Virus record (IMG/VR): IMGVR_UViG_3300042563_002362
Strand: one strand, 5' to 3'
Origin: a virus
Lineage: Duplodnaviria > Heunggongvirae > Uroviricota > Caudoviricetes
Length of the DNA stretch: 64,000 bases
Below, one piece after another: positions 11,287 to 36,651 of this stretch. The notes under the pieces were generated by a model, which saw nothing but the letters and a program-made list of their open reading frames with translations, was not told the origin of the DNA and searched no databases. Each line of letters begins with the position of its first letter. The first letter of the stretch is position 1. Made by a program: the position numbers and the translations under genes.

Positions 11287-11547
11287 ATGACCAATTTACA
11301 AATTCTTAAGTCTGATTTAGAAATGCATGTCGCTCGAAGGGAGCAGCTGGCAAATGGCAATGGCGGATTCTTTATTCGACGTGAAGGGTATCCAGTGACT
11401 GGTGTTCTTGCCAGTTATGATAAGATCATTGTATCTCTTAAAAAAGAAATTGCCGATCTTGAAATAAAGAAGACTGCGCGTAAGCAGCCGCAGAAAAAGA
11501 CCACGACCAAGAAGAAAACCTCTAGCAAAAAGAAAGCCGCTAAATGA
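11287..11547 (+). CDS. small protein with Lys-rich basic C-terminal tail
   Basis: 86 aa. The C-terminus is KKTARKQPQKKTTTKKKTSSKKKAAK, which suggests histone-like or nucleic-acid binding. Confidence 0.45.
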   Translation: MTNLQILKSDLEMHVARREQLANGNGGFFIRREGYPVTGVLASYDKIIVSLKKEIADLEIKKTARKQPQKKTTTKKKTSSKKKAAK

Positions 11548-12575
11548 AACTTGCCTCAGTTGAACTCGTAAAAGAAATCAAACCTCATTCAAATGCTGAC
11601 TCGCTTGAGATCGCCGTTGTCCTTGGGTATGAATGTATCGTACCAATCGGTAAGTTTTCGCCGGGACAAGCTGTTGTGTTGATTCAGCCTGACGTTGTGC
11701 TTCCAGATGCTCCATGGGCAGAGGTTTTCCGGGCGCGATCAAATCGTGTCAAGGCTATGAAGCTGCGTGGAGTTTGGAGCTTCGGTATTGTCCTCAGTGT
11801 ATTTGATATCGTCGATCACAACTCACGCGGTAGTGCGCAGCTGAAGCGTTGGCTGCTTCCAATTAACATCGGAAAGGATATCTCTGAGGAAATTGGAGTC
11901 GCTAAGTATGAACCTCCCGCGCCAAAGTCTCTTGACGCTGCAGGACACTTGCCGTCTAGAATGCCAAAGACCGACGAAGAGCGTTATCAAAACCTGACTG
12001 ACAGCCTGCCATACGGCGAACATGTTGACGTCACGCTGAAGATTGACGGTCAAAGCGCTACTTACTTCTGTATCCGTGACGCGAATGCTGAAGGTGGATG
12101 GCGCACTGGAATTTGTTCTCGATCTCTTGAGATTAAGCCTGAGTGCAATAACAATTACACGCTCGCTGAACGTAAGTACAACATTCTCGAAAAGCTCAAG
12201 AACTATTGTACGTACCATAACGTCAGCCTTGCACTACGTGGCGAGGTTTACGGGCAAGGCATTCAAGCCTTTGATGCAAATCCACACTCTAAGCTCCCGC
12301 TTGACTTTGCAGCATTTAGCGTATGGAACCACGACACTCTAGCTTATGAAGGTCCCAATGACCCACATTACTACGAAAAGGTAGCAGCCGCTACGGTTGG
12401 CGAAATTCCCGTTGTACCGATGGTCGAGCGTCAGGTAGTTCTTACGTCTGAACTGATTGAAAAGTATGCACGTGGAATCGACAAGATTGAAGGCAAGCGT
12501 TTTGAAGGAGTTGTGATTAAGCATTCGCTTGGTAGCTTCAAAGTCATCAACCTTTCCTACGACGAACGCAAGTAA
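11544..12575 (+). CDS. RNA ligase with N-terminal OB-like domain (Rnl5/DraRnl-NgrRnl-like)
   Basis: 343 aa. The KxDG nucleotidyltransferase motif TLKIDGQSATYF lies near residue 166. The N-terminal ~150 aa (IKPHSNADSLEIAVVLGYECIVPIGK...) resembles a tRNA-binding/OB fold. Size and motif position match the Rnl5 family. Confidence 0.45.
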   Translation: MKLASVELVKEIKPHSNADSLEIAVVLGYECIVPIGKFSPGQAVVLIQPDVVLPDAPWAEVFRARSNRVKAMKLRGVWSFGIVLSVFDIVDHNSRGSAQLKRWLLPINIGKDISEEIGVAKYEPPAPKSLDAAGHLPSRMPKTDEERYQNLTDSLPYGEHVDVTLKIDGQSATYFCIRDANAEGGWRTGICSRSLEIKPECNNNYTLAERKYNILEKLKNYCTYHNVSLALRGEVYGQGIQAFDANPHSKLPLDFAAFSVWNHDTLAYEGPNDPHYYEKVAAATVGEIPVVPMVERQVVLTSELIEKYARGIDKIEGKRFEGVVIKHSLGSFKVINLSYDERK

Positions 12576-12811
12576 TGGATCACTTTGAATTTCGTTGGAA
12601 GCAGCGGCTCGGATATGCATTGCGAAAATCTGAACGAAAAGATTTTCACAATGCTGTTCGTACCTCGCGCAAATTCATACATAAAGAACCAAACACGAGC
12701 GGAACTGTTTATGCAGTAAAGCATAAAGGCATAAACATTGTTGTTGTATATGACCCGCTTCTTGACATTCTGATTACTGTCCTACCACCGTCAAATAACC
12801 ATAAGAAATAA
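12575..12811 (+). CDS. hypothetical protein
   Basis: 78-aa ORF whose start overlaps the upstream stop. Confidence 0.4.
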   Translation: MDHFEFRWKQRLGYALRKSERKDFHNAVRTSRKFIHKEPNTSGTVYAVKHKGINIVVVYDPLLDILITVLPPSNNHKK

Positions 12812-12826
12812 TTTATATCTATTCAT

Positions 12827-13147
12827 ATGAAATACTTGAACCAGATTGCAATACTTGCGAGCTTTAGTATTCTGCTATACTACACAAAATCATATGACTT
12901 CATCTATTGGGTTATGGCCGTATTGATCGGCACTACGTATCTTCATCCGTTATTTGCGTTGATTAGTCGTTCATATCGCAAGCAATGGGATTCTCCGATC
13001 GATGTTGCACAGATGATTATTGCCGCAAGCGTCGCAATCTTCAACATGCGCGTGGTATTGAAGGATTCTTCGCTATGCACCTTTTATGGTGTCGGCGTTG
13101 GACTTTCGTTTATTGCGACTTCATATTTAATTACACGTAGAGCATAA
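12827..13147 (+). CDS. membrane protein (multi-TM)
   Basis: 106 aa with three hydrophobic segments. Confidence 0.4.
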   Translation: MKYLNQIAILASFSILLYYTKSYDFIYWVMAVLIGTTYLHPLFALISRSYRKQWDSPIDVAQMIIAASVAIFNMRVVLKDSSLCTFYGVGVGLSFIATSYLITRRA

Positions 13148-13148
13148 C

Positions 13149-13367
13149 ATGGGAGAGGCTAAACGAAGAGGCACATTTGAAGAGCGTGCAGACAATGCCA
13201 AAGGCGAATCGTGGCGGCCAATCTACTGGACCGAAGAACGTCTTGATGAATTCAAGGAAAGCATGCGTAAGGAACTTGGAACATACATTGACAAAGTAAA
13301 ATCTGACTTGTTTATGCCTCGAAAACCAAAGGAGAAAAAATTTAGAAAAATCAAAACAGGAGGTTAA
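13149..13367 (+). CDS. hypothetical protein
   Basis: 72-aa ORF. A strong SD, AGGAGG, for the next gene lies at its 3' end. Confidence 0.35.
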   Translation: MGEAKRRGTFEERADNAKGESWRPIYWTEERLDEFKESMRKELGTYIDKVKSDLFMPRKPKEKKFRKIKTGG

Positions 13368-13370
13368 ATT

Positions 13371-14142: not shown

Positions 14143-14196
14143 TTTACATCTGTTCATATTCCGTTTATAATGAGTCTGTAACGCAACCACTATATT
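14143..14196 (+). promoter_or_regulatory. sigma70-type promoter cassette
   Basis: The -35 is at 14143-14148 and the -10 TATAAT at 14166-14171. The leader GAGTCTGTAACGCAACCACTATATT follows. ATG at 14197. Confidence 0.55.
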
Positions 14197-15938: not shown

Positions 15939-16478
15939 ATGAAAACAATCCGACATAACACATACGAAACAAACTCGTCTAGCACGCATGCTTACAGCGT
16001 GCAAGATTTGAACCTTAAGAACCGCCCTGACCTCAACATCATTCCTGGCGATGATGGATTCATTCGAGTCGGCTTTACCGAAATGACTGAGTCGACTCCT
16101 CAGAACAAGATTGGTCATATTCTTAATTACGCCAATTCGGTTGGTGATCAAGAATTGTTTGATCGCGTCTGCAAGGTCGTCGAGGAATTCACTGGAGCAA
16201 AACTACTTGTTAGCGCTTCAGTCCGATTGAATAACAAGTGGGAAAAGGTTGACAATCTGCGTGAAGTCACCAATCCTAAGTTCAACTTCGACACCGAGGA
16301 AGAATACGATTGGGAAACTCTAAATGATCGATGGTATTCATTTACAAACGAATATGGGCATGGCAGCATCAATGAGTTTTGTGGAGTCATGAATGAAATT
16401 GGTCGCACCGAAGAAAACCTGAAGATCTTTATCTTCTCATCTAACCAAGGAGTACATGTCGAATCCTACTATAACTGA
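15939..16478 (+). CDS. paralog 3 of MKTIRHNTYETNSSSTHS family
   Basis: 179 aa with the same N-terminal peptide. Confidence 0.5.
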   Translation: MKTIRHNTYETNSSSTHAYSVQDLNLKNRPDLNIIPGDDGFIRVGFTEMTESTPQNKIGHILNYANSVGDQELFDRVCKVVEEFTGAKLLVSASVRLNNKWEKVDNLREVTNPKFNFDTEEEYDWETLNDRWYSFTNEYGHGSINEFCGVMNEIGRTEENLKIFIFSSNQGVHVESYYN

Positions 16479-17049
16479 AGTATCTGATCGCCTTGCAAGT
16501 CTTAAACTTGCGGCCGAAACTCTAGGTTGTGTCGATCTTGCGTCTAAAGTTCTTGATGATAAAAACTTTCGTATTTGGAGTGGTTCTCATCATAAACTTG
16601 CGCACCATTATGGAGACGGTGGACTACTGACGCATACCTTTGAGGTTGTCACTTTGTCATTAAATACCGCTCATCTCTATAGCGATGTTCATAAGATTGA
16701 CAACAAGCAGCTGTTCTTAAGCGCGTTGTATCATGACTATGGCAAGCTATGGGATTATGATCGCAGTGAAGATGGTAAATGGGTTCGTAATAACCATCGT
16801 CGCAAGATCCACCACATTTCGCGTTCAAACGTAGAATGGGTTTGCTGGGCAATTGCAATGGGAGCAGACGACGAATTGATTGATGCCGTTAGTCATAACA
16901 TCTTATCGCATCATGGTTCACGTGAATGTGGTAGCCCAGTTGCTCCATACACACGTGAGGCGTGGATTCTACATCTCGCGGACTCCATGAGCGCGCGCGT
17001 TGATGATTGTGATCGTCTTGACTTGGTAACAATTAACAAAAATGCCTGA
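16456..17049 (+). CDS. HD-domain phosphohydrolase
   Basis: It has an H...HDYGK motif (LYHDYGKLWDYD) plus downstream His/Asp. Confidence 0.5.
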   Translation: MSNPTITEVSDRLASLKLAAETLGCVDLASKVLDDKNFRIWSGSHHKLAHHYGDGGLLTHTFEVVTLSLNTAHLYSDVHKIDNKQLFLSALYHDYGKLWDYDRSEDGKWVRNNHRRKIHHISRSNVEWVCWAIAMGADDELIDAVSHNILSHHGSRECGSPVAPYTREAWILHLADSMSARVDDCDRLDLVTINKNA

Positions 17050-17828: not shown

Positions 17829-17893
17829 TTTTCAATAAGTTGCACAAATTTGCACAAAAGTGGGAACTTTTTTCACTTTTGTGCATTTTTTTA

Positions 17894-17949
17894 TTTACAA
17901 GGTGACATTTTCCGTTTATAATAATTCTGTAAGGCAACCACCACAAAAT
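17894..17949 (+). promoter_or_regulatory. sigma70-type promoter cassette preceded by palindrome GCACAAAAGTG-N11-CACTTTTGTGC
   Basis: The -35 is at 17894-17899 and the -10 at 17917-17922. The leader is AATTCTGTAAGGCAACCACCACAAAAT, with ATG at 17950. The whole ~112-nt unit is near-identical to 35063-35176. Confidence 0.6.
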
Positions 17950-18126
17950 ATGATTACTCTAGCTCCAAAATACACGAAACATTCCATCCACCTTGGCGTT
18001 CAAATTTACAAACGCAAGGCTAACACTGGAACGAGCGGCGGCATGTGGCTCACCGATTCCACTACCTTCAAGTCTCTGGCAGGAGCCAAGGCTTGGTTGG
18101 AATATCGCGCTAGCCTCAATGCGTAA
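17950..18126 (+). CDS. small hypothetical protein (58 aa)
   Basis: The track ORF 17860..18126 includes the promoter. The real start is the ATG at the leader end. Confidence 0.35.
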   Translation: MITLAPKYTKHSIHLGVQIYKRKANTGTSGGMWLTDSTTFKSLAGAKAWLEYRASLNA

Positions 18127-18554: not shown

Positions 18555-19973
18555 ATGACATTTGAATTTAATACTGCACTAGATCTGATCGGAAAGCTCG
18601 ATGAAGCGTTCCCAGGAACGCAAAGTCTGATTGTCGGCGGAGCGGTTCGTGACTACTTTTTGAACGTACCCGCGCACGACGTTGACATTGCAACCAATGT
18701 TCCGTTTGAGCAGCTTGCGCTATACTTTGAGTTGCAGGACATCACGAAGAACACCGTGAATGCTCAGCCTGTTAGCATCATCGTTCATTGCGGCGTCGCT
18801 TTTGAAATTGCTCAGTTCCGCACTGACAGTATCGGTACTGACCGTAAGAGTAACGTCGCAACGGTTGTCAGCACCTTTGAAGAAGACAGTGCGCGTCGTG
18901 ATATCACGATTAACGCAATAGGTCTTGACCGCAATCAGAAGATCATCGACCCACAAGGTGGACGTCAAGATCTGATTAGAGAATTGGTCACGTGCGTCGG
19001 CGATCCAAACATTCGCTTTCAGGAAGATGCAACACGTATTCTTCGGGTCTTGCGGTTTGCTGCTAAGCTAAACTTCGCTATTCACCCTGACACGCTTGAC
19101 GCGGTTATTCGCAACCGTGGTCTACTCACTGATCGTGAACGTATTAGTCCAGAGAGTATCGCTAAGGAAATCTTTAAGGCTGCACATGATGGCGTAGTCT
19201 TTGCAAGATTTATTCGGCTGCTTGATCTAATGGGCATTAGTTCTCTAATCCTGCGTGAATGGATTGATCTGAATGGATTTACTCATGATCCTATTCACCA
19301 TCCTGAAGGTGGAAGTACTGTTCAAGGTCATATTCTTGAGTGCCTTGTTCAAGGTGGATTTACGAATGATCCTGTGACTAACATCGGTATCTTCTGTCAT
19401 GACCTTGGTAAGGCAGTCACTCGCGGGGTCAAGAGCAACGGACAGTCCAACTATCATGGGCACGAAGGTGCAGGAGTTCCTATTGTCGAAGCACTGTTTG
19501 ACCGCCTGCGGTTTAACGATCTGTCTTCAGGCGACAAGGAAGATATCCTCTTTGCCACCGAAAAGCACATGCTGATTCATAACCTTCGTGAACTTAGCAC
19601 GCGCACAATTGCACGTCTGGTTCTTGCAAAGGGTTGGAATGTTCTGAAGCAAGTTGCCTTTGCTGATGAAGCAAGCCGTGGACCTGATCTTTTCAATGCA
19701 GATGAATTCACTCAAAGGATTGCTTGGGCCGAAGAAAAGGTTCGGAACATTGCTAAGAATCGCGATGAACTTCGCCTACGCGTCAAGGAACATGTTGATG
19801 GCAACAAGCTGCTGGAATGGTTCCCTGAACTGCAAAGCAATCGTAAACTCCTTGCGCCTCTTCTCGAGTTCCTTGCTGAATTCATTCTTGAATGCATCGA
19901 CCTTGGAGAGATTCCTTCCCAAGATGACATCCGTCGCGTTGCCTCAAACGAACTTTTTTACAATCTAAATTAA
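18555..19973 (+). CDS. cca: tRNA nucleotidyltransferase (CCA-adding enzyme) with C-terminal HD domain
   Basis: The Pol-beta NTase head is GGAVRDYFLNVPAHDVDIAT (GGxVRD...DxD). RRD follows. The C-terminus has HD-type His/Asp motifs. Confidence 0.65.
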   Translation: MTFEFNTALDLIGKLDEAFPGTQSLIVGGAVRDYFLNVPAHDVDIATNVPFEQLALYFELQDITKNTVNAQPVSIIVHCGVAFEIAQFRTDSIGTDRKSNVATVVSTFEEDSARRDITINAIGLDRNQKIIDPQGGRQDLIRELVTCVGDPNIRFQEDATRILRVLRFAAKLNFAIHPDTLDAVIRNRGLLTDRERISPESIAKEIFKAAHDGVVFARFIRLLDLMGISSLILREWIDLNGFTHDPIHHPEGGSTVQGHILECLVQGGFTNDPVTNIGIFCHDLGKAVTRGVKSNGQSNYHGHEGAGVPIVEALFDRLRFNDLSSGDKEDILFATEKHMLIHNLRELSTRTIARLVLAKGWNVLKQVAFADEASRGPDLFNADEFTQRIAWAEEKVRNIAKNRDELRLRVKEHVDGNKLLEWFPELQSNRKLLAPLLEFLAEFILECIDLGEIPSQDDIRRVASNELFYNLN

Positions 19974-20486: not shown

Positions 20487-20888
20487 ATGAGAATGTATTT
20501 TTTTGTAATGGGAAATTTGTCAGGACGGCAACAAGGGATTCAAGCGGGTCATGCTGCTGTTGAGTATTCACGGCATGCAGCTGACCGTGTTGAAGGATAT
20601 GAGCAATATGCCGAATTTGCTGATGACCATAAGACGTTCATCTTACTTGACGGGGGAGGTAGTCAGGATATGCCTATGCGCGCGCGTGAATTGCGATCGC
20701 TTAACATCAAGACTGCCTCATTTTATGAACCTGACTTGAATAACTCTCTATCCGCAATCGCATTCATTCTTCCAGAAGAAATTTATGGCATCGACTTAGC
20801 TGATCCTGGGGGTGAAGGCGACGAGAGTAATCTTCGTCGTTACGCTATCAAATCATACATCTCAAAATTCCGACTCGCATCAAACTAA
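20487..20888 (+). CDS. possible PTH2-like peptidyl-tRNA hydrolase (alt start 20430)
   Basis: MRMYFFVMGNLSGRQQGIQAGHAAVEY follows the PTH2 pattern (hydrophobic-R/G-DL-M-GK-AQ-HAA). It is ~134 aa. The call is tentative. Confidence 0.3.
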   Translation: MRMYFFVMGNLSGRQQGIQAGHAAVEYSRHAADRVEGYEQYAEFADDHKTFILLDGGGSQDMPMRARELRSLNIKTASFYEPDLNNSLSAIAFILPEEIYGIDLADPGGEGDESNLRRYAIKSYISKFRLASN

Positions 20889-21636: not shown

Positions 21637-21673
21637 GTAAGTAAGGAACACGAAACGAACACTAAAACACATT

Positions 21674-22204: not shown

Positions 22205-22227
22205 GTAAGGAACCCAAAACGAACATT

Positions 22228-22758: not shown

Positions 22759-22788
22759 GGAACCCAAAACGAACACGAAACGAACATT

Positions 22789-26198: not shown

Positions 26199-26249
26199 TT
26201 TACATTCGTCTAAAAACCTGTTAAAATAATTCTGTAAGGAAACCACCAC
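26199..26249 (+). promoter_or_regulatory. sigma70-type promoter cassette
   Basis: The -35 is at 26199-26204 and the -10 TAAAAT at 26222-26227. The leader AATTCTGTAAGGAAACCACCAC follows. ATG at 26250. Confidence 0.55.
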
Positions 26250-26964: not shown

Positions 26965-27270
26965 ATGAAAGTTTTTCTCGATGACGAAAGAGTCACTCCG
27001 CAAGGATGGTTCCGAACATACAATCCCGACGACACGATTGATTTGCTGCACGCTGGTCTGGTGACTGAGCTTAGCCTCGATCATGACCTTGGTGATGACG
27101 ACGAAATCGGAACTGGATATGACGTGGTTCTTTGGATTGAGGAAGCCGTTGCTTTGCGAGGCTTTGTTCCTCCAATCATTCACGTTCACTCCGCAAACTC
27201 TTCGGCCGCCGCAAAGATGCGTGCTGGAATCGAAACAATCCAAAGACTACACAATGCACTCTCCGTATAA
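26965..27270 (+). CDS. small receiver(REC)-like domain protein, RtcB-associated
   Basis: It begins MKVFLDDERVTPQGW and has an acidic loop LSLDHDLGDDDEIGTGYDVVLWIEE. It is 101 aa and lies just upstream of rtcB. It resembles the receiver-like modules I recall as being linked to RtcB operons, but I cannot verify this. Confidence 0.3.
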   Translation: MKVFLDDERVTPQGWFRTYNPDDTIDLLHAGLVTELSLDHDLGDDDEIGTGYDVVLWIEEAVALRGFVPPIIHVHSANSSAAAKMRAGIETIQRLHNALSV

Positions 27271-27439: not shown

Positions 27440-28675
27440 GTGATATTGCCTGTGGAAATTATTTATAAAAATGACAATCTTATGAAACTATTAGGTTCAA
27501 ACAACAATATTCCGGTTTTCGGCGATCCTCTCCAGAATGCCGTTGATCAGATGTCGAACTGTCTCGTCAAGGGTGGCTACAAGGCTGCACTTATGGCTGA
27601 CCATCACCTTGGTTATGCTGTTCCTGTCGGCGGCGTAATTGCTTACAAGGACAAGATCTCGCCTTCAGGTGTAGGCTTCGACATCGGCTGCGGAAACAAG
27701 GCTGTGATGACTGACCTGCACTATGGAGATATCGCGGGTGATATGAACCGTATCATGGACGAAGTGTTTGATCGCATCTCGTTTGGAATCGGCCGCAAGA
27801 ACAAGACTGATGTTGACCATGCGTTGTTTGACAACGATGCTTGGACTGACATCGCTATGCTCGGCGAGCTGAAGGACATGGCGCGCGGACAGCTTGGTAC
27901 TGTCGGCAGCGGTAACCACTATGTCGATATCTTCTATGATCAAAAGGGTCGCGTTTGGATCGGAGTTCACTTTGGTTCACGTGGTCTTGGTCACAAGATT
28001 GCTTCGCATTACATCAAGGCCGGCGGCGGTGTTGACGGTATTAACGTCGATCCTGCTATCTTGGATGTGAATACTGACCTTGGTCGCGAATACATCGCTG
28101 CTATGAACCTCGCTGGTGAATATGCGTATGCTGGTCGCGATTGGGTCTGTGAAGAAGTTGCTCGTATCCTTGGTGCGTCTATCCTTGACAGCGTTCACAA
28201 CCACCATAACTTCGCTTGGAATGAAACTCATGACGGTGAAGACCTTTGGGTTGTTCGCAAGGGTGCTACTCCTGCTTTCCCAGGTCAACGTGGTTTTGTC
28301 GGTGGAACTATGGGTGAAAACTCAGTGATCCTCGAAGGCGTCGCGTCGGACCTTTCTTCCTCTACTCTGTATTCAACTGTTCACGGTGCAGGCCGAGTCA
28401 TGTCGCGCACCGAAGCTGCTGGTAAGTCCAAGTGGAAGGGTGGAAAGAAGATCAAGATTTCGGAAGGCAAGGTCTCGCAGGCCATGATGGACGAATGGGT
28501 TAACAAGGCTGGCGTTGTTCTTCGCGGCGCAGGCGTCGATGAATCTCCACATGCTTACAAGCGTTTGGCTGATGTCCTTGAAGCTCAGGGCGACACTGTT
28601 CGTATTCTCGACGTTCTTACTCCAATCGGAGTTGCGATGGCAGGTGCTGATGTATTTGATCCTTACGCCGATTGA
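27440..28675 (+). CDS. rtcB: RtcB-family RNA 3'-phosphate/2',3'-cyclic phosphate ligase
   Basis: 411 aa (or 397 aa from the ATG at 27482). It has GFDIGCGN, GSGNHYVDIF and HNHHNFAW blocks, with length typical of RtcB. Confidence 0.65.
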   Translation: MILPVEIIYKNDNLMKLLGSNNNIPVFGDPLQNAVDQMSNCLVKGGYKAALMADHHLGYAVPVGGVIAYKDKISPSGVGFDIGCGNKAVMTDLHYGDIAGDMNRIMDEVFDRISFGIGRKNKTDVDHALFDNDAWTDIAMLGELKDMARGQLGTVGSGNHYVDIFYDQKGRVWIGVHFGSRGLGHKIASHYIKAGGGVDGINVDPAILDVNTDLGREYIAAMNLAGEYAYAGRDWVCEEVARILGASILDSVHNHHNFAWNETHDGEDLWVVRKGATPAFPGQRGFVGGTMGENSVILEGVASDLSSSTLYSTVHGAGRVMSRTEAAGKSKWKGGKKIKISEGKVSQAMMDEWVNKAGVVLRGAGVDESPHAYKRLADVLEAQGDTVRILDVLTPIGVAMAGADVFDPYAD

Positions 28676-29502
28676 ATGATACGTTTCCAATCAGATTCTT
28701 CACCATCTTTGATTCTGAAGAATCTGCATTGTAATTCTTCAATTATTCTATCCTGACGCAGCTTATCTTTAAGTTTTTGATCTGGTCTTTCGTGATAAGC
28801 TTCATCAAACTCAATTACCACATTTTCAACCGGTTCATAATAATCAAGAAGATATCCAGCAACTCTAAATTCACCAACATTTTCAGCATGAACTCCGTTC
28901 CATCCAAGCTCTGAATTTATTTCCTCAAATAATCGACAAGCCTTTGCATTATAATTTGGACATGTCCAGCCTAAAGGATACTTTGAATCAATATCTCGTA
29001 AACGTCCATCTCTCTGTTTTTCTTTAGTCTCTGGTGTATGAATTTTTCCAGTAAATCCAGGCTTTCTCCCTTTAAGACTTTGAGATTTACGTTTTCTAGT
29101 TTCAGGACTTTCAGTAATGCCTAATCGTGACTTGTTGTATTCTTTTCCTTTATTTGCTTTACTGATTTTCTCTTTGGTTTCTTTAGTATGTGTTCGACTA
29201 AAAGCATGACTTCGATCAGTACACTTATAACACGTGGTTGCCTTTAATGCTCGATAGTAACATCCAATTCCAGTATGAATGACAATTTCGCCGCATTGAC
29301 ACGTTCTAGTGTATTCTGTTAATTGAGCTAGTGGATCTTTATCATATGTTCTTTCAACTGCACATGAATCTCTTATTTCTTTGTCCATTAAAAACTTTAC
29401 ATTGTGTTTCTTCTTATACTCATTTGGAGAAAGACCGCAGCAATACTTAAGATGTAAATAACCAATACTTTTTAATTCTCTTTGACACTCTAAGCAAATC
29501 AT
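28663..29502 (-). CDS. free-standing homing-endonuclease-like protein (Cys-rich HNH/Zn-finger plus NUMOD3-like basic repeats)
   Basis: It has N-terminal CLECQ...HLKYCCG and CQCGE...CYKC clusters. The C-terminal region has repeated ETKEK/ETRKRKS/GRKPGF motifs. It is on the opposite strand and overlaps the rtcB 3' end by 13 nt. Confidence 0.4.
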   Translation of the reverse strand: MICLECQRELKSIGYLHLKYCCGLSPNEYKKKHNVKFLMDKEIRDSCAVERTYDKDPLAQLTEYTRTCQCGEIVIHTGIGCYYRALKATTCYKCTDRSHAFSRTHTKETKEKISKANKGKEYNKSRLGITESPETRKRKSQSLKGRKPGFTGKIHTPETKEKQRDGRLRDIDSKYPLGWTCPNYNAKACRLFEEINSELGWNGVHAENVGEFRVAGYLLDYYEPVENVVIEFDEAYHERPDQKLKDKLRQDRIIEELQCRFFRIKDGEESDWKRIIQSA

Positions 29503-29552: not shown

Positions 29553-30536
29553 ATGAAATTCGGAAAAATTCCAAAGAAGCTTAAGTTCTATTGTAGACCT
29601 GAGACCAAGATTCGATTCAGGTGGTCTGATGTTGAATTTGAAGATCCATCTGCCGCAGACGTATCGGCGATCCCAGTGTTTATCACTGACGCCGAAAATC
29701 TAAAGACCCAAAAGACTGCGGTTGATTGGGCAGGACGTGCACAATGGCATTGGGACCCTGTCACTGGAAAAAGAGTCGATGTCAGCAAGCCTTACACGAT
29801 CGTTGAAGCTGATAACTTGCCAGTGAAGAGTGTGCGGATTATTGGTCTTGACATTCGAGGAAATGGTGGTCGTGCATACCAAGCATTGGTTGATGAAAAG
29901 TATCTTGTTGATATGCGTGAAGACGTTATGCTTGATACGATGATCAATGTCGGCATGGGACTTAATGCAACATTACCAGGCGAATACATCTTTGCACAAA
30001 TTGGAGCAGAAATGAAGCTGATTCGCGTAGGTAGCAAGCTGCATGAACTGATGATTGAGACAACTTCATTTGGTGAAAAGAAGGCAATCTCGAAGTTGAT
30101 TCCAGGCCGCGTTTATGCTTCAAAGTCCAAGAAAGTATTGTACCTTGGTGAAGTATGGCATACGCCAATTGAACAAAACTACAATTATCGTAATGGCAAA
30201 TATGATGTGGCCGTGGTTAAACCGAGTCGCAAGCGTCATCTATGTATCGGCATCAATACTACATCTTCGGACCTCAAAACCACTCTTGGTGAAGATACTA
30301 AGTTTTTCACGGTAAATGTTGAATTCACTGAAAAGCAAAGTAAAGCATTCCGCGAAGAACTTGTGGAGATTGAAAACTTTGACATTGAAGAAGCATTGAC
30401 TGAGATTCGTCGCAGAATCGAAGTATGCTATGATGAAGAGATGAGGGGATGGGATCTTGCATATTACTCCAGCATGAACATCTCTGCAACAACTCCTGGG
30501 TGGATTCACCCGAAAATTGCCGAAAGACTAAAATAA
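29553..30536 (+). CDS. hypothetical protein
   Basis: 327-aa ORF. Confidence 0.5.
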   Translation: MKFGKIPKKLKFYCRPETKIRFRWSDVEFEDPSAADVSAIPVFITDAENLKTQKTAVDWAGRAQWHWDPVTGKRVDVSKPYTIVEADNLPVKSVRIIGLDIRGNGGRAYQALVDEKYLVDMREDVMLDTMINVGMGLNATLPGEYIFAQIGAEMKLIRVGSKLHELMIETTSFGEKKAISKLIPGRVYASKSKKVLYLGEVWHTPIEQNYNYRNGKYDVAVVKPSRKRHLCIGINTTSSDLKTTLGEDTKFFTVNVEFTEKQSKAFREELVEIENFDIEEALTEIRRRIEVCYDEEMRGWDLAYYSSMNISATTPGWIHPKIAERLK

Positions 30537-31363
30537 TGAAACCGCAATGGATCATAGAAAACTTCACAAAGGAAGAATCGTTTCTTGACCTTGAAAAAGA
30601 AGTCAGAGCCCAGGGCTATGACGTTCAAACTATCAAAGGTGACTTTCTTAAAGCTGATCTGGCTGATTATCGCGACACATGCGTAATCTTTAATGGCAGC
30701 ATTGAGATGTGCAAGATTGCAAAAGAAGTACTCAGCGCTCAAGGATGCAGTCCAATCATCTATTGTGATTGGGAAAAGTATCTGTGCACCTCTTACTATC
30801 CGCATTTCTCAGAGCACGTCTTCAATGACAACTATGTCTTAGTGCCGATGATTGAGTTTCAGCGTAGGCTGTATCAATTCTATGGCATCTTTGGTAAGCA
30901 AGAGCTGATCTTTGTTCGACCAAACAACGGAGACAAAACCTTTAAAGCTGAACTGCTTGACATTCAAGATGCACCGAAGTTCTTTGAAGAATTAGACCAA
31001 TACAAACATGACTTGGTCCTGCTAAGTACTCCAAAGAACATTGTCGGAGAATGGCGTTTTGTATGTACGGCCGAAAAGGAAATCCTAGCAGTATCAAGCT
31101 ATCGCTATCAAGGAGTACTTACGCGTATTCCGTCTGCTCCACTTGGCGCCACCGAAAAATGTAAAGAGCTTCTTGAGATCGGATATTACCCTGACAGCGT
31201 TTTTTGCATTGATATTGTGCAGGACTCTGACGGAAACTTCTGGATGATGGAACTCACCTCTTTTTCAAGCGCAGGTCTTTACTCCACTAGGAAAGAAAAC
31301 ATTGTCCGCCGCGTTTCTGAAATTGCTATGAAAGATTATGAAAAAAGTAATTTACAAAGCTGA
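30536..31363 (+). CDS. ATP-grasp-fold protein (putative ligase)
   Basis: The track ORF is 30449..31363 and the Met at 30536 abuts the upstream stop. The blocks IFVRPNNGDKTFKAELL, EWRFVCTAEKEILAVSS and FCIDIVQDSDGNFWMMELTS match ATP-grasp core strands (RimK/GshB-like). Confidence 0.4.
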   Translation: MKPQWIIENFTKEESFLDLEKEVRAQGYDVQTIKGDFLKADLADYRDTCVIFNGSIEMCKIAKEVLSAQGCSPIIYCDWEKYLCTSYYPHFSEHVFNDNYVLVPMIEFQRRLYQFYGIFGKQELIFVRPNNGDKTFKAELLDIQDAPKFFEELDQYKHDLVLLSTPKNIVGEWRFVCTAEKEILAVSSYRYQGVLTRIPSAPLGATEKCKELLEIGYYPDSVFCIDIVQDSDGNFWMMELTSFSSAGLYSTRKENIVRRVSEIAMKDYEKSNLQS

Positions 31364-31400
31364 CCAAACCGTTTATAATAATCTCACAACAAACAACAAC

Positions 31401-32672
31401 ATGATTAAGAAAACACTACTACTGCTTGCGGTATTTGCCGGTTCCACTCTTGCATTCAATGCTTTTGACGGATCGGGCGCTTCAACATTGGTCGCAAATA
31501 AACTTGCGCTCGATACTGTGAATGGCGGAAACGCTGAGTTCATTGCTCAATATTCATATGGACATCTGCTATCTCTGAATGTATGGGCCGTTATGACTAC
31601 ACTTCTAACTGCATTGGTGATGTGGTCTCGTTCGGTAAACAAGGTCTCGGCTGCTGCTATGCTGCTTGCAGGTTTCTCGTTCCTGTCGCTGCCATCGTGT
31701 AAGCCGTATCAAAAGCCTATCTATAAGGAAATCAAAAGCAATGAAACTGCGTTTGTGATTCCCCTTGAAGGTGACACTGCATCGCAGGTAAAGTTCGACT
31801 CCAAGGCTGCACTTGAAAAGCACAAGGTTGGCACAAAGCGAATTGAGATTCCGACGCGATGGAGTCAAACTGGTCGAGGTATGGGTTCCGGTGAATGGAT
31901 TCCAACTGTGAATATCATCATTGTTGATCGTAGTCCAATTACTCGAAATTGGTCCGCAGGTGATCGAGGAACGTCTAAGGAAGATCAGGCTATCTGGGTT
32001 GAATCATCGGACAGTGTCGGATTCTCTATGGGCTTTAACTGTACCGCTTTCATTAAAGAAGAAGATACTGCACAGTTCCTCTATTGGTACAGCAGCGGTA
32101 GCCTTGCATCCGTAATGGATAGTGAAATTCGAGGACGCGTCCAGCGTGTCGCTGCTGAAGAAAGCGCCAAGCTTCCGTTGGATGATCTACGTGATAAGAA
32201 GAATGAAATCGCGGCTGCAATCCAAAAGGATGTTATCCCATTCTTCTCTGAACGTGGAATCACGGTCACTACGGTTGGTATGTTTGGCGGTATGACTTAT
32301 GAAAATCCAGAGATTCAGAAGTCAATTGACAATGTCTTTGTTGCACAACAGCAGAAGAATGTTGCACTCGCAAAATATGATGCGCAAAAGAAGGAGAACG
32401 AACGCGTGATTCTTGAAGCACAAGGTGTCGCCGAACAAAAGACTATCACTGCTGAAGCTGATGCTAAGCAGCGTCAAATCCAAGCTGATGCCGAAGCACA
32501 TGCCATCGCTACGCTTACAAAGTCAATTGCTGATGGTGGAACTAACTACCTTAACTACAAGCAAATGGAAATCAATCTTAAGCAGGCTGAACGCTGGGAT
32601 GGTTCGCTGCCAAAGATCACTGGTGGATCTGTTGTTCCAATGCTTAACGCTGAAACATTCCTTAATAAGTAA
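31401..32672 (+). CDS. SPFH/band-7-like membrane protein
   Basis: It has a signal/TM N-terminus MIKKTLLLLAVFAGSTLA. The C-terminus has an AEQK/AEADAKQRQIQADAEAHA coiled-coil typical of HflK/C-stomatin. Confidence 0.4.
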   Translation: MIKKTLLLLAVFAGSTLAFNAFDGSGASTLVANKLALDTVNGGNAEFIAQYSYGHLLSLNVWAVMTTLLTALVMWSRSVNKVSAAAMLLAGFSFLSLPSCKPYQKPIYKEIKSNETAFVIPLEGDTASQVKFDSKAALEKHKVGTKRIEIPTRWSQTGRGMGSGEWIPTVNIIIVDRSPITRNWSAGDRGTSKEDQAIWVESSDSVGFSMGFNCTAFIKEEDTAQFLYWYSSGSLASVMDSEIRGRVQRVAAEESAKLPLDDLRDKKNEIAAAIQKDVIPFFSERGITVTTVGMFGGMTYENPEIQKSIDNVFVAQQQKNVALAKYDAQKKENERVILEAQGVAEQKTITAEADAKQRQIQADAEAHAIATLTKSIADGGTNYLNYKQMEINLKQAERWDGSLPKITGGSVVPMLNAETFLNK

Positions 32673-32677
32673 TACAC

Positions 32678-32947
32678 ATGGCTGCAGAAATTGTAACTAC
32701 ATATTACCTAGCTGGAATTATCAATCGTCCAATCGGTGGATCTGATGATGAACTAACGTCGAAATACACTAAGATTCCAAACACTCCTGACTTCACCACA
32801 CAAGCTGCGGCCGAGACGTTTCGAGACGATGTAATTTTGGCGAACGATGAAAACAAGAAATTCTATCGTTGTGCTAGTGTTGGAGGCGCATTTAGTCCAA
32901 ATCACATTAAGGTAATCACGCAAACCCGAACAGTAATTCTAGCATGA
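32678..32947 (+). CDS. hypothetical protein
   Basis: 89-aa ORF. Confidence 0.35.
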   Translation: MAAEIVTTYYLAGIINRPIGGSDDELTSKYTKIPNTPDFTTQAAAETFRDDVILANDENKKFYRCASVGGAFSPNHIKVITQTRTVILA

Positions 32948-33414
32948 AAATAGTCAAAGGCGATCTTGTCAAAGCAATCCGTGAAGGCGCAGATGGAGGA
33001 CCGCAGGTTATGCTGCATGTCTGCAATAACAAAGGTGTCATGGGCAGCGGTATCGCGCTGCAAGTGAAGAATCAAATTCCTGACGCATATCGTGCATATA
33101 AGGACTTTGAGGCTGCAGTTGGTGGTATCCCATTGGGTACAATCAGTACTTGCCACAACGTGATTAACCTTCATGCGCAGAACGGATATGGACAAGGTTT
33201 TCGCCATCTTGACTATGAAGAATTGTACAAGTCGCTTGAGAAGGCAGCAGCATATCTTGAGCGTTCGGGTGTCGAGCGCGTCGGAGTTCCATACCGCATG
33301 GGCTCCGATCGCGCAGGCGGCGATTGGCGAATCGTAAGTGCAATGCTTGAAACAGTCTTTACATACGGCAACAATCCACACATCACTCTATACGTTTATG
33401 AACTTGAAAACTAA
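32944..33414 (+). CDS. TARG1/OARD1-DarG-like macrodomain (ADP-ribosyl hydrolase)
   Basis: HVCNNKGVMGSGIALQVK aligns with TARG1 CxxxDxxMGAGIA. YRMGSDRAGGDWRIVSAMLETVF aligns with TARG1 [23 protein letters not shown]. Confidence 0.5.
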   Translation: MKIVKGDLVKAIREGADGGPQVMLHVCNNKGVMGSGIALQVKNQIPDAYRAYKDFEAAVGGIPLGTISTCHNVINLHAQNGYGQGFRHLDYEELYKSLEKAAAYLERSGVERVGVPYRMGSDRAGGDWRIVSAMLETVFTYGNNPHITLYVYELEN

Positions 33415-34066: not shown

Positions 34067-34432
34067 ATGAAGCGGTATAGTTATGTAACTGATTGTGGAG
34101 TAGTTGAAGATCCAAATGGTGACTATGTTAAGTATGCCGATTATGAAGCTCTTTCAAAGTATGCTGACAGCCTGGTTGAGTTTTCGAAGATACCATGTCT
34201 TCCAGCTGATCTTAAAAACCTGCGTGAAGCTAATGGTCATTTCGCGCAAGAGAACAGTATCTTACAGGGTAGGATTCGTGAACTTGAAGCAGAAATTCGG
34301 TCGCTGAAAGCATCTCAAAAGATTAATGAAAATGAAATTGTCGGCTGGAAAAACAAGTGGGACGCAGCAGTAACAATTGCTGCAATCGCAGAAAATAAAG
34401 TCGACGCAATTAAACGACAAATCTTTCAATAA
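34067..34432 (+). CDS. coiled-coil protein
   Basis: 122 aa. The C-terminal half is a heptad-rich coiled coil. Confidence 0.4.
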   Translation: MKRYSYVTDCGVVEDPNGDYVKYADYEALSKYADSLVEFSKIPCLPADLKNLREANGHFAQENSILQGRIRELEAEIRSLKASQKINENEIVGWKNKWDAAVTIAAIAENKVDAIKRQIFQ

Positions 34433-35043
34433 TGAGTAACACACAAACACAATATGACGGCTATAAGTACTGTTTCATTGACACCGAAACAACTGGTACC
34501 GATCGTCTAAGGAATCATATCTTTCAAATCAGCGGTCGTATCACGACTCCTGACCTTGAGGAACTAGAATCATTTAACTTAGTCTTCAGACCATACAGTC
34601 TTGAGCATGTTGAACAAGGCGCGCTTGAAAAGACGCGTATGACTGTCGAAGATTTGGCTTCATTCCCAATGTCTAGTTCGCAGGCTTACGCCGAATTTTC
34701 CGAAATCCTAGGAAGGCATGTTCAGAAGTTCAACAAGAAGGATAAGATGCACTTCGTTGCATACAATGCTGGATTTGATGTTGACTTTACGCGACAGTGG
34801 TTTACCGTAAATGGAGACTCATATTTCGGTAGCTGGTTCTGGAACCCGCCGATTTGTTGCATGCAAGCTGCCGCATGGCTGACACAACGTGTTCGAGGTG
34901 CTCTCCCGGACTTCAAACTGGGAACTGTCTGCCGAGCCGCAGAATTAGGATGGAATGAAGACTCTGCTCATAATGCCGATTATGACATTGAGAAAACGGT
35001 GCAGCTTTTCCGCTATTTGACGGAATATGCTCCGAAAATTTGA
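34432..35043 (+). CDS. DnaQ-like 3'-5' exonuclease (DEDDh)
   Basis: ExoI is CFIDTETTG and ExoIII is HNADYD (HxAxxD). Confidence 0.6.
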   Translation: MSNTQTQYDGYKYCFIDTETTGTDRLRNHIFQISGRITTPDLEELESFNLVFRPYSLEHVEQGALEKTRMTVEDLASFPMSSSQAYAEFSEILGRHVQKFNKKDKMHFVAYNAGFDVDFTRQWFTVNGDSYFGSWFWNPPICCMQAAAWLTQRVRGALPDFKLGTVCRAAELGWNEDSAHNADYDIEKTVQLFRYLTEYAPKI

Positions 35044-35120
35044 CTGAATACCCGTAACCTATTGAAATTCATAAATTTGCACAAAAGTGGGAACTTTTTT
35101 CACTTTTGTGCATTTTCTTG

Positions 35121-35176
35121 TTTACATTCCGCGAGTTTCCGTTTATAATAATTCTGTAAGGCAACCACTACAAAAT
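35121..35176 (+). promoter_or_regulatory. sigma70-type promoter cassette preceded by palindrome GCACAAAAGTG-N11-CACTTTTGTGC
   Basis: The -35 is at 35121-35126 and the -10 at 35144-35149. The leader is AATTCTGTAAGGCAACCACTACAAAAT, with ATG at 35177. Confidence 0.6.
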
Positions 35177-35458
35177 ATGAATACCACTAAAACTTCCGCT
35201 TTCTCCGCCACCACTCGCGCCGCTGACAAAGAATACATTGTCATTGGAATCAACAGTAAGGAACATTCCGTGTTGGCTCGCACTCCGTATGAAGCCCTTG
35301 GAATCTTCCTCAAGCGCGGCCGCCACGGTCTTGGCACCAATTGGAGACTGACTCGCCAACCAGACGGTTGGATCGTGGCTGTCAATACCACAGGCCGCAA
35401 TCTTGAGCGCAAAATGCACAAACTCCGCGAGAAAAACTACACTCGCGGAATGCGCTAA
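35177..35458 (+). CDS. hypothetical protein (93 aa)
   Basis: The track ORF 35087..35458 includes the promoter. The start is at the leader end. Confidence 0.45.
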   Translation: MNTTKTSAFSATTRAADKEYIVIGINSKEHSVLARTPYEALGIFLKRGRHGLGTNWRLTRQPDGWIVAVNTTGRNLERKMHKLREKNYTRGMR

Positions 35459-35489
35459 TCGGCTCTGAAACTCAACAAGCGTCTCATCT

Positions 35490-35828
35490 ATGAAAAAGAT
35501 TGTTACTAAAGATTCTCTACTGCAACTGCTTGACGGCTCTCCAGAGCGGAAAGCGCAAATCGTAGGTCGGGCGCTTGTTGTTCTTTTCAACCGCCAAGTC
35601 GAAGACGAAAAGACCAGCAACGATACTCGCCACCTCAATATGCGCGGGTTCGCTCCATGCGATGCTTACAGCGGAACTCTTACTGCTAAGTACTACCTTA
35701 AGCACCGCAGACTACTCGATTGGCAACTTGAGCGATGGCTTGCTCCAACGACCAAAGGATACCCGCGTATTGCAAAATACACTCGTCAGCTCAACGAAGC
35801 CGCAAACGAAAAACTTCAAACGGTATGA
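35490..35828 (+). CDS. hypothetical protein
   Basis: 112-aa ORF. Confidence 0.45.
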   Translation: MKKIVTKDSLLQLLDGSPERKAQIVGRALVVLFNRQVEDEKTSNDTRHLNMRGFAPCDAYSGTLTAKYYLKHRRLLDWQLERWLAPTTKGYPRIAKYTRQLNEAANEKLQTV

Positions 35829-36019
35829 ATACACCAACAAACCACCATTCGTTGCGTCTATTGGATTTGGCGATTCGTTGGAACACTCAAGCTGAAATCT
35901 ACGATGAGGAAGGCAATGCTGACTGCGGGACGGGATCGGACGTCCCTTACGCGATGGCTTCAATGCTACGCGAACACGCCGCCGAGATTGAAAAGCTGGC
36001 ATACATGTCTAAAGAATAA
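35825..36019 (+). CDS. hypothetical protein (64 aa)
   Basis: Internal Met of track ORF 35735..36019, with an ATGA overlap to the upstream gene. Confidence 0.35.
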   Translation: MNTPTNHHSLRLLDLAIRWNTQAEIYDEEGNADCGTGSDVPYAMASMLREHAAEIEKLAYMSKE

Positions 36020-36024
36020 GTAAA

Positions 36025-36651
36025 ATGAAACCACTTCGCTACAAATATCCTCGCACATTCCATCTTCCATGGAGCGAAGGCTGCACATCAGACGATAAGA
36101 AGCTGGCAGGCAGCGATCACTTCATTGGTCAGCAGGTTGTGATCACCGAAAAGATGGACGGTGAGAATACGACAATCTATCATGACCATGTTCACGCTCG
36201 TTCGATTGACAGTTCGCATCATTGGTCGCGCTCACGCGTCAAAGAACTGCAGTCTCGCTTGTATGATCTGCCTGAAGATCTGCGAATCTGCGGTGAAAAC
36301 CTTTATGCCAAGCATAGCATCAAGTACGATAACCTTGTGGATTACTTCCAGGTCTTCAGTATTTGGAGCCACGAACAATGCCTCTCTTGGAAGGATACTG
36401 TTGAGTGGGCTGAGATTCTTGGGCTGAAGACTGTTCCTGTTCTCTATAGCGGAGTCTATAGCTATCCGATCATCAAGGAGATTCAAAATAAAATGGACTT
36501 CTCACGCAGTGAAGGTTATGTAATTCGCCTAGCCGATTCATTCCGCATGAAGGACTTCTCGAAGAGCGTCGCTAAGTATGTCCGTACTAATCATGTCCAA
36601 ACCGACGAGCATTGGATGACTGCTGAACCTGAAACAAATACCTTAGTATGA
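36025..36651 (+). CDS. small KxDG nucleotidyltransferase, RNA-ligase-like (Rnl2-type NTase domain only)
   Basis: YPRTFHLPWS is followed by ITEKMDGENTTIY (motif I KxDG near residue 43). 208 aa. Confidence 0.4.
   Translation: MKPLRYKYPRTFHLPWSEGCTSDDKKLAGSDHFIGQQVVITEKMDGENTTIYHDHVHARSIDSSHHWSRSRVKELQSRLYDLPEDLRICGENLYAKHSIKYDNLVDYFQVFSIWSHEQCLSWKDTVEWAEILGLKTVPVLYSGVYSYPIIKEIQNKMDFSRSEGYVIRLADSFRMKDFSKSVAKYVRTNHVQTDEHWMTAEPETNTLV

Follow-up and report, generated by a model that had tools for sequence, protein, structure and literature searches.

Introduction

Phage T4 reseals tRNA-Lys cleaved by PrrC with two enzymes, Pnk and Rnl1. Here we compare with this and related systems a set of predicted RNA-repair genes in the early region of an uncultured T4-like phage. 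The genes lie on the IMG/VR record IMGVR_UViG_3300042563_002362, and we refer to the whole stretch of 64,000 nucleotides that was analysed as the window. Among them are genes for an RtcB ligase, two ATP-dependent RNA ligases, a CCA-adding type nucleotidyltransferase, a protein with a predicted PTH2 fold and a small alarmone hydrolase. In jumbo phages RtcB and Rnl1/Rnl2 ligases were described in any combination, with cREC (cyclic-phosphate-processing receiver-like) proteins linked to the ligases (Iyer et al. 2021, Viruses 13:63, PMC7824862). The same work lists for these phages the CCA enzyme, PTH2, PhoH, an HD alarmone hydrolase and Macro proteins.

A preliminary description of the window had proposed an unusually broad RNA-repair toolkit dispersed through the early region. 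All nine open reading frames (ORFs) that it named are present and begin where it had placed them, and eight of them score above the Pfam thresholds, with PHROGs and NCBIfam in agreement. The end point it gave for the region, 36651, leaves out the last two genes on its own list (42170 and 42814). The breadth of the toolkit is not unusual, since the same list of components is already on record for jumbo phages (PMC7824862). The RNA-repair capacity as such is real, though of an ordinary kind. It would counter host enzymes by which tRNA is cut or blocked, an anti-defence role suggested here by the literature on other phages. In our assessment the early region probably, though by no means certainly, encodes enzymes that restore damaged ends of translation RNAs and that were inherited vertically as a set.

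Two predicted sealing routes

Domains were called at the curated Pfam thresholds, supplemented by NCBIfam and PHROGs scans of the window ORFs, and AlphaFold (AF2) models were compared with PDB structures using Foldseek. Judged by their domains, two chemically distinct sealing routes coexist in the window, as had been proposed: a predicted RtcB route for 2',3'-cyclic-phosphate/5'-OH ends and a predicted route for 3'-OH/5'-phosphate ends through ATP-dependent ligases with a KxDG motif.

The 3'-phosphate/5'-hydroxyl RNA ligase RtcB (Pfam RtcB, PF01139) is encoded on the plus strand at 27440..28675, with the start possibly at an ATG at 27482. The Pfam match (E = 2.7e-67, 228.3 bits against a cut-off of 27) covers model positions 14-424 of 426. 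The motifs DIGCG (81), GSGNH (156), GSRGLGH (179), HNHHN (253) and HGAGR (315) align with RtcB of P. horikoshii, in which they hold the metal-binding Asp, Cys and His residues and the guanylylated histidine. By sequence, the active site of the phage enzyme is intact.

The first of the ATP-dependent ligases, a 343-aa protein of the Rnl5 type, is encoded at 11544..12575 (plus strand). It consists of an N-terminal OB domain (PF21189, PHA02142 OB, residues 3-85, E = 3e-11) and a nucleotidyltransferase domain (PF09414, residues 161-333, E = 1.2e-16). The protein lacks a C-terminal domain and thus matches the Rnl5 layout, in which OB precedes nucleotidyltransferase. Residues 2-341 align with residues 6-335 of the Naegleria gruberi RNA ligase 5cot (E = 1.4e-22). 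In this alignment the adenylylation motif K166-I-D-G falls in register, with KIDGQS placed over KLDGSS of 5cot, whose lysine is Lys170 of NgrRnl in motif I (KxDG). The NCBIfam model RNA_lig_DRB0094 is matched with E = 1e-36 and 126.6 bits, which is under its equivalog cut-off of 151. Characterised Rnl5 enzymes (NgrRnl and DraRnl) seal nicks in duplex RNA and not anticodon loops. The analogy with T4 Rnl1 that had been drawn for the window is therefore loose.

The second ATP-dependent ligase (36025..36651, plus strand) is a minimal nucleotidyltransferase of the RNA-ligase type with 208 aa, the motif K43-M-D-G and no appended domain. It belongs to PF09414 (E = 9.4e-33), yet has none of the named Rnl1-Rnl5 architectures. 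Its AF2 model has a mean predicted local distance difference test score (pLDDT) of 91, and the top Foldseek matches are NgrRnl, the Aquifex structure 3qwu, archaeal Rnl3 and T4 Rnl2. The family is tightly conserved over 5652 homologues, some of which carry an N-terminal HNH nuclease. Among INPHARED records it was found in only 33, nearly all of them jumbo or mega-phages. We also considered that the small ligase might be one half of a split Rnl5. The ORFs upstream of it (35735-36019 and 35490-35828) gave neither an OB nor a ligase match, and the idea is further disfavoured because the 208-aa form is the norm among the 5652 homologues.

To place these genes in a wider context, we surveyed gene linkage in 80 viral RtcB loci, 80 viral HD_4 loci and 80 IMG/VR loci of PTH2-like genes. 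The counts obtained are raw locus counts in which genome size is uncontrolled; they are suggestive and amount to no statistical proof. In seven of 80 unrelated viral loci RtcB is immediately followed by a gene for an Rnl5-like ligase, and in an eighth such a gene is at most 2 kb away. CCA, PTH2-like, HD_4 and His-phosphatase genes were all absent within 10 kb of RtcB in these 80 loci.

It has to be asked whether the KxDG ligases act on RNA at all. Together with a DEDD 3'-5' exonuclease of the RNase_T family (34432..35043, plus strand; RNase_T E = 2e-10; PHROG 192) they might serve replication or repair by acting on DNA or on RNA-DNA junctions rather than on tRNA. A complete ATP-dependent DNA ligase is encoded at 37610-39010, within 3 kb of the small ligase and the exonuclease, and PHROG 192 labels the latter as a DNA polymerase exonuclease subunit. 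Furthermore, the Rnl5 enzyme of Deinococcus seals nicks between a 3'-OH RNA strand and a 5'-phosphate DNA strand. Against this stand the membership of both ligases in the RNA-ligase family PF09414, with RNA ligases as their best structural neighbours, the presence of a separate and complete DNA ligase, and the Rnl5-like genes directly beside RtcB in several other phages. We consider a DNA-directed role of these enzymes to be very unlikely.

A polynucleotide kinase had been reported as missing, and our searches agree. Walker-A motifs in the window are confined to a helicase and a 716-aa membrane-rich structural protein, and the HAD motif DxDxT does not occur. A search of the window with T4 Pnk gave nothing at E = 10; the same query does find full-length Pnkp in two unrelated viral contigs (L094 and L169). 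Pfam and PHROGs scans of the other window ORFs revealed no kinase, 2H or KptA protein.

Predicted enzymes acting on tRNA 3' ends

The class II tRNA nucleotidyltransferase of the CCA-adding type (18555..19973, plus strand) comprises a PolyA_pol head (PF01743, E = 3.2e-22, 79.6 bits) and an HD-like C-terminal region. The class II motifs A (GGAVRD and DVDIAT), B (RRD) and D (EDATR) at residues 28, 42, 114 and 157 align with those of 1miv, the CCA enzyme of B. stearothermophilus, which is also the best PDB match (E = 5e-35, compared to 2e-17 for a poly(A) polymerase). The NCBIfam model for multifunctional CCA addition/repair (PRK10885) aligns with residues 25-357 at E = 1.9e-35, and every NCBIfam equivalog score is under its cut-off. 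In the HD-like region we find H-D at residue 282 and HGHE at residue 301. An enzyme of the CCA-adding type, as proposed before, is present.

For the next protein of interest (20487..20888, plus strand), a possible PTH2 according to the preliminary description, the fold is supported by modelling and the Pfam assignment is not: PF01981 is matched with E = 0.061 and 14 bits, below the cut-off of 23. Neither a single-sequence search nor a search with a profile of 40 homologues found a Pth2 chain among the PDB sequences. The protein matches PHROG 3668 (‘hydrolase’, E = 2e-25). An AlphaFold model built on the alignment of the 40 homologues reached a pLDDT of 93.6, and Foldseek places only Pth2 structures among its first 13 PDB matches, with a probability of 1.0 and template modelling (TM) scores of 0.53-0.74. 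They include Pth2 from Methanocaldococcus, Archaeoglobus, Thermoplasma, Pyrococcus and Sulfolobus as well as human Bit1. Invariant in the phage family are G17, I18, Q19, H22, T50, G56, G57 and E81. As modelled, the protein has the Pth2 fold, with a sequence outside the Pfam family; we regard it as a divergent PTH2-fold protein and a candidate peptidyl- or N-acyl-aminoacyl-tRNA hydrolase.

The PTH2-like gene follows the CCA gene in four related metagenomic contigs (L004, L005, L251 and L252). The same succession is found in the cultured phages CR8, KaOmega, P7_Pc and PBES 02, and the pair recurs in phages of Cronobacter, Klebsiella, Pectobacterium, Rheinheimera and Vibrio. In L004, a relative with 75% identity, 21 tRNA genes are located directly upstream of the two genes. 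The L004 row itself (550-7614 and 19998-20396 are the sites noted on this contig) consists of the CCA and PTH2-like genes, 42 residues left over from the C-terminus of RtcB, and R2K, with a TROVE/Ro60-vWA gene about 10 kb downstream of it.

Such an arrangement could mean that the enzymes secure the phage's own translation supply, i.e. that they mature and recycle phage tRNAs by adding CCA, trimming ends and recycling peptidyl-tRNA, and process phage transcripts, with no part in counter-defence. The tRNA array next to the CCA and PTH2-like genes of L004 and the nearby TROVE/Ro60 gene would fit such a role. However, neither RtcB nor nick-sealing ligases have a known role in bacterial tRNA maturation. 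Moreover, 20 of the 21 tRNA genes of L004 encode their CCA, such that addition is unneeded for maturation. This argues that the CCA enzyme serves the repair of ends rather than the maturation of tRNAs. No tRNA or tmRNA genes and no matches to Rfam families were found in the window, and the stretches seen of L005, L006, L087 and L251-L253 are likewise free of tRNA genes. CCA enzymes and PTH2 do occur mainly in tRNA-rich large phages (PMC7824862). Overall, a pure supply function appears very unlikely to us.

cREC and HD-domain proteins

A cREC protein, predicted to be a 2',3'-cyclic phosphodiesterase, is encoded at 26965..27270 (plus strand), 170 nt upstream of RtcB. It matches PF20274 (cREC_REC) with E = 6.5e-25 and 88.1 bits against a cut-off of 27, and it has the acidic pocket residues D6-D7 and D39/D41. 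The protein, labelled ‘receiver-like’ before, belongs to the cREC family and is no signalling receiver. Pfam scans of the window ORFs found no kinase that could be its histidine-kinase partner. The predicted activity of the family and its linkage to RNA ligases have been described (PMC7824862). Among the contigs compared, cREC occurs only in the window and its closest relative, L006. As a usual neighbour of RtcB it was rejected, since an iterative hidden Markov model (HMM) search of the 80 viral RtcB loci recovered the closest relative only. The small ORF ahead of RtcB in Tunturiibacter phage Tunturi_5 has no likeness to cREC.

A single-domain small alarmone hydrolase of the SpoT/MESH1 type (HD_4, PF13328) lies at 42814..43257 on the plus strand behind a promoter of its own (42777-42808). 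Pfam HD_4 is matched with E = 1.8e-10 and 41.2 bits against a cut-off of 27.2, and the HD family is matched as well. The best PDB match is human MESH1 (3nr1, E = 3.7e-13), followed by the (p)ppApp hydrolase 7smg (E = 1.3e-12). The protein aligns with residues 10-130 of MESH1, and the His...HD...ED...D/N motifs are present. MESH1 and small alarmone hydrolases reverse the pyrophosphorylation of tRNA CCA ends by toxSAS in vitro (Kurata et al. 2021, preprint). With MESH1 as the closest relative, the proposed link to CapRel-like systems gains support. In the survey of viral HD_4 loci, RtcB was found within 6 kb in four of 80 and a CCA gene in six, together ten of the 80.

Two further proteins had been counted among the repair enzymes, for which we find nothing beyond plausibility. 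One is a stand-alone HD phosphohydrolase (16456..17049, plus strand; Pfam HD E = 2e-7). Its residues 50-187 match YhaM in the PDB (9h3f, E = 7e-12), and NCBIfam PRK13480 is matched with E = 2.9e-14. What the protein shares with YhaM, a 3'-5' exoribonuclease, is the HD domain only; the OB domain of YhaM is missing. The other is a branch 1 His-phosphatase (42170..42745, plus strand; His_Phos_1 E = 2.4e-26) with the RHG motif at residue 8. Its best NCBIfam match is alpha-ribazole phosphatase, far under the cut-off. The His-phosphatase gene adjoins the HD_4 gene also in the related contig L087.

Phage identity and conserved gene order

Its proteins place the window in a distant T4-like myovirus. 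Markers are the single-strand-binding protein gp32 (46270-47211), the late-transcription coactivator, a T4 baseplate protein and a gp5 OB/CHAP protein. The baseplate wedge protein is 33% identical to the versions of Methylophilales phage Melnitz, Pelagibacter phage HTVC008M and cyanomyoviruses. No close DNA relative was found among 50,697 deposited phage records. Metagenomic contigs with close homologues reach about 187-211 kb, so that the 64-kb window represents about one third of the genome, and the phage is at or just below the 200-kb limit for jumbo phages. It probably originates from fresh water. The sample names of the relatives resemble lakes.

In the relatives L251, L252 and L253 the genes for the YhaM-like HD protein, the CCA enzyme, the PTH2-like protein, RtcB, a 327-aa protein, the RNase_T-like exonuclease, the small ligase and the DNA ligase follow each other in this order within about 19 kb. 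Across these three contigs the identity of RtcB declines from 96% to 69% and that of the 327-aa protein from 80% to 41%. Since the order is kept while the relatives diverge, the kit is an inherited block. In L251 the YhaM-like HD gene is kept upstream of the CCA gene. The exonuclease is kept between RtcB and the small ligase in L006 as well as in L251, L252 and L253. Other members of the block come and go among the relatives, namely cREC, the R2K.2 ATP-grasp, Band-7 and Macro genes.

The dispersion noted in the preliminary description is correct for the window itself, where the genes are spread out, and is in part secondary given their compact arrangement in the relatives. Two features account for the spreading: a paralogue array and a homing-endonuclease gene (see below). 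The array at 21244-24670 encodes 6-7 paralogous proteins composed of ‘HREDGPA(V/I)E’ repeats, which are MORN-like with a faint DUF6745 match and share a common C-terminal ‘LTMDEIASKFGIEVSKLKI’ tail. L251 and L252 contain this protein as a single copy, such that the array was expanded in the phage of the window.

Early promoters

The pattern TTTACA-N17-TAWAAT-RAT (32 nt) occurs in 15 copies, all on the plus strand between 2337 and 46229 of the window, compared to 0.08 copies expected by chance. The copies have A/T-rich upstream flanks and conserved downstream flanks, and the element is kept in the relatives L006, L087, L251 and L252. This promoter family is of the strong sigma70 type, the kind that T4 uses early. 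These 15 near-identical promoters support the earlier designation of the region as early.

Copies of this one family head the units that contain each of the kit genes. The copy at 11233..11264 (TTTACA-N17-TATAAT-AAT, plus strand, as are all that follow) heads the unit of the Rnl5-type ligase, the one at 14143..14174 lies upstream of the unit with the YhaM-like HD gene, and that at 17894..17925 heads the CCA/PTH2-like unit. Further downstream, 26199..26230 heads the cREC/RtcB unit, 31351..31382 the Band-7/Macro/exonuclease unit and 35121..35152 the unit of the small ligase. The copy at 39772..39803 is upstream of the unit that ends in the His-phosphatase gene, and 42777..42808, with one mismatch, is directly upstream of the HD_4 gene. 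Translation of promoter copies gives rise to spurious ORFs, as seen for 11172-11309 and for the starts of 17860-18126 and 35087-35458.

Proposed function of the gene set

From what is known of these families the following roles may be envisaged. Some host nucleases that attack anticodons or rRNA need no metal and leave 2',3'-cyclic-phosphate and 5'-OH ends; early in infection RtcB would directly reseal the tRNA or rRNA that they have cut. Cyclic phosphates may be opened, or 3'-phosphates removed, by the cREC protein and by the HD tail that the CCA enzyme carries. The Rnl5-type ligase would seal 3'-OH/5'-phosphate nicks in duplex RNA, the CCA enzyme would rebuild trimmed 3' ends, and the PTH2-like protein may free tRNA from peptidyl or N-acyl adducts. 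Finally, the HD_4 hydrolase might strip pyrophosphate off CCA ends modified by CapRel/FaRel2-type toxins, or degrade (p)ppGpp/(p)ppApp. The His-phosphatase, the YhaM-like HD protein, the RNase_T-like exonuclease, the R2K, Band-7 and Macro proteins and the 327-aa protein are neighbours and no more than possible members of the kit.

Several observations weigh against a coordinated repair set. T4-like genomes generally keep their gene order, so that synteny alone is a weak sign of joint function. The window contains no 5'-kinase, which leaves the ATP-dependent route incomplete there; its ligases would be unable to act on 5'-OH ends unless the two thirds of the genome outside the window supply a kinase. 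The HD tail of the CCA enzyme scores 17.8 bits, below the Pfam cut-off of 22, and the PTH2-like protein is only 12-15% identical to solved Pth2 structures. Adjacency of CCA and PTH2-like genes is no general rule: in the 80 IMG/VR loci of PTH2-like genes a CCA gene lay at most 8 kb away in four and was adjacent in none. The cREC gene is absent from L251-L253, and its cyclic-phosphate activity is a family-wide prediction only (Iyer et al. 2022, PMC9503650).

The same genes could instead be an assortment of early accessory genes that act independently of each other, of which only cREC and RtcB repair RNA. In this case the HD_4 protein would degrade alarmones, ADP-ribose derivatives or DNA ADP-ribosylation of the DarT type would be the targets of cREC and Macro, the His-phosphatase and the YhaM-like HD protein would act on small molecules, and the co-location would reflect a T4-like site for accessory genes. 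The organisation of the genes in at least eight separate promoter-headed units is in line with such a collection, as are the variability of cREC, R2K, Band-7 and Macro among the relatives and the similarity of the Macro domain, which is closest to DarG. In the 80 viral loci, furthermore, the neighbours of PTH2-like genes are mostly unconnected with RNA repair, DNA ligase being the commonest (21 of 80). Iyer et al. class HD alarmone hydrolases, Macro and cREC under counter-nucleotide/NAD functions as well as under RNA repair (PMC7824862, PMC9503650). On the other hand, the core order of CCA, PTH2-like, RtcB, exonuclease and small ligase is still kept where protein identity has fallen to 41-69%, and the pairs RtcB/Rnl5, HD_4/RtcB or CCA, and CCA/PTH2-like recur in unrelated phages. 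We regard such an assortment as unlikely, with a real chance of being correct, and favour the inherited repair set.

RtcB neighbours and other genes of the block

Downstream of RtcB the window carries a homing-endonuclease-like gene on the minus strand (28663..29502; NUMOD3 E = 3.9e-10, PHROG 314), which overlaps the RtcB stop by 13 nt and separates RtcB from its usual downstream neighbour. It is absent at the RtcB site in all four relatives examined (L006, L251, L252 and L253) and stands outside the repair kit.

The usual neighbour encodes the 327-aa protein (29553..30536, plus strand), which is conserved downstream of RtcB in the clade. The distance to RtcB is about 0-1.1 kb in L006, L251, L252 and L253 and 3.4 kb in L012. 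Its family has 33 members; none of the 21 members scanned has a Pfam family, and a profile search found no PDB relative. On the 423-kb contig L254 the surroundings of a homologue instead include genes for an NAD-dependent DNA ligase and an HD_4 hydrolase, and a radical-SAM-related gene is found near it as well.

The gene that follows (30533..31363, plus strand; Pfam R2K_2 E = 5e-7) encodes an ATP-grasp protein of the R2K.2 family, a predicted peptide/amide ligase. A homologue lies directly downstream of RtcB in the unrelated acidobacterial jumbo phage Tunturi_5, and in the viral contig L169 R2K.2 adjoins a Pnkp kinase-phosphatase confirmed by Pfam. The sites of this link are 30533-31363 in the window, 7417-8196 in L001 and 6001-8151 in L169. 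R2K.2 was rejected as a general partner of RtcB: at three further loci its neighbours are Pnkp (L169), DUF2828 about 3 kb off (L168) and capsid genes (L170), and at L170 no RNA-repair neighbour was found. The family was predicted to modify host proteins, with no tie to RNA repair (Burroughs et al. 2015). There may thus be a link between R2K.2 and RNA repair that is undescribed so far. One could go further and suppose that RtcB of this clade works with undescribed partners, the 327-aa protein and, in some lineages, the R2K.2 ATP-grasp. We give this idea a small chance only; if true, a modification of the peptide-ligase type or a new accessory factor would join the means of RNA repair or ribosome rescue in phages. 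The block, with its CCA enzyme, divergent PTH2-fold protein and MESH1-like hydrolase, would then constitute a dedicated rescue system for tRNA 3' ends.

L252 (5647-6090) and L253 (4675-5115) carry a gene with a YqeY/GatB-like domain (PF09424) upstream of RtcB, from which it is separated by one or two small ORFs. These two relatives lack cREC upstream of RtcB, unlike the window.

A Band-7/SPFH membrane protein is encoded at 31338..32672 (plus strand; Pfam Band_7 E = 1e-6). The gene is variable, being present in L252 and absent from L006 and L251. It is followed by a Macro-domain protein (32944..33414, plus strand; Pfam Macro E = 0.007, PHROG 335 E = 1.6e-32), whose best named relative is the NCBIfam family antitoxin_DarG (E = 8e-10). 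DarG is an antitoxin, namely a DNA ADP-ribosyl glycohydrolase. For the Macro protein, a removal of ADP-ribose is more likely than a role in RNA repair according to these matches, and the protein is a candidate for countering defence of the DarT type.

Upstream of the YhaM-like HD gene lies a gene for a radical-SAM-like protein (14197-15144), which is kept in the relatives; its Pfam match is weak and PHROG ‘Fe-S oxidoreductase’ is matched with E = 5e-48. A trio of paralogous ORFs in this part of the window (13371-14135, 15391-15924 and 15939-16478) has the N-terminus MKTIRHNTYETNSSSTH in common and is divergent beyond it, and a related ORF occurs in L253. Other genes of the early region encode ThyX (547-1224), a YAcAr SLOG protein (1898-2245), a group-1 glycosyltransferase (3512-4645), PhoH (6898-7665) and a DEAD/Helicase_C_2 helicase (7662-9398), the latter on the strand opposite to the neighbouring early genes.

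Beyond the early region, the Gly/Ala-rich, membrane-like structural protein of 716 aa is encoded on the minus strand (47224-49374) and is possibly a tape-measure or internal protein. Its gene includes a 45-nt unit that is present three times at a spacing of 168 nt (48139-48519). A gene with a TnsA-like endonuclease domain (51445-51888, minus strand) is located amid the baseplate genes.

Comparison with known systems

The T4 system shares with the window its basic logic, in which enzymes made early by the phage restore the ends of host tRNA cut by a suicide nuclease and rejoin them, and T4 belongs to the same virion lineage (gp32, gp5 and baseplate). It differs in its components. The window has no detectable Pnk or Rnl1, and RtcB would seal cyclic-phosphate/5'-OH ends in one step. 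Rnl1 of T4 is specialised on loops, whereas the ATP-dependent ligases of the window are of the Rnl5 and the minimal type. The Rnl5 enzymes of Naegleria gruberi and Deinococcus radiodurans have the same succession of OB and nucleotidyltransferase domains with the adenylylated lysine kept, but the window enzyme is distant from them in sequence.

The multifunctional Cca of E. coli has the same head motifs, and its HD domain is weakly resembled by the C-terminal half of the window enzyme, which scores far below the equivalog cut-off; the Bacillus CCA enzyme, the best solved relative, has no HD domain, unlike E. coli Cca. Small alarmone hydrolases and human MESH1 possess the same single HD_4 domain with HD and ED motifs, whereas the hydrolase of the window is phage-encoded and unpaired with a toxSAS. 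The Pth2 proteins MJ0051, AF2095 and human PTRH2/Bit1 have the same fold as the PTH2-like protein, which is about 20 residues longer and has a C-terminal helix. Carriage of PTH2 is known from jumbo phages (PMC7824862).

The repair repertoires of jumbo phages, for example the Burkholderia phages BcepSauron/BcepSaruman and the Xanthomonas phage XacN1, have the same list of components as the window. BcepSauron and the megaphage LR756501 are among the best matches to the Rnl5-type ligase, and XacN1 and LR756501 among those to the small ligase. Compared to these repertoires, the 64 kb seen here are without Pnk/HAD phosphatase, 2H, RlaP, Rnl1 and tRNAs, and add the lineage-specific 327-aa neighbour of RtcB and the R2K.2 ATP-grasp. 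For biochemistry, the window offers as candidates the 208-aa ligase, a divergent PTH2-fold family missed by the domain databases and the RtcB-linked 327-aa protein.

These results leave unchanged the current view that large phages answer defences aimed at tRNA with ligases, end-healing enzymes and CCA repair. What they add is a further group of phages with multi-route RNA repair, namely a T4-like clade that is uncultured and probably from fresh water and in which the kit was inherited as a block and not randomly assembled. The components of the kit were already known from jumbo phages; notable are mainly their occurrence in a T4-like clade, the conserved order, the neighbour of RtcB and the link to R2K.2.

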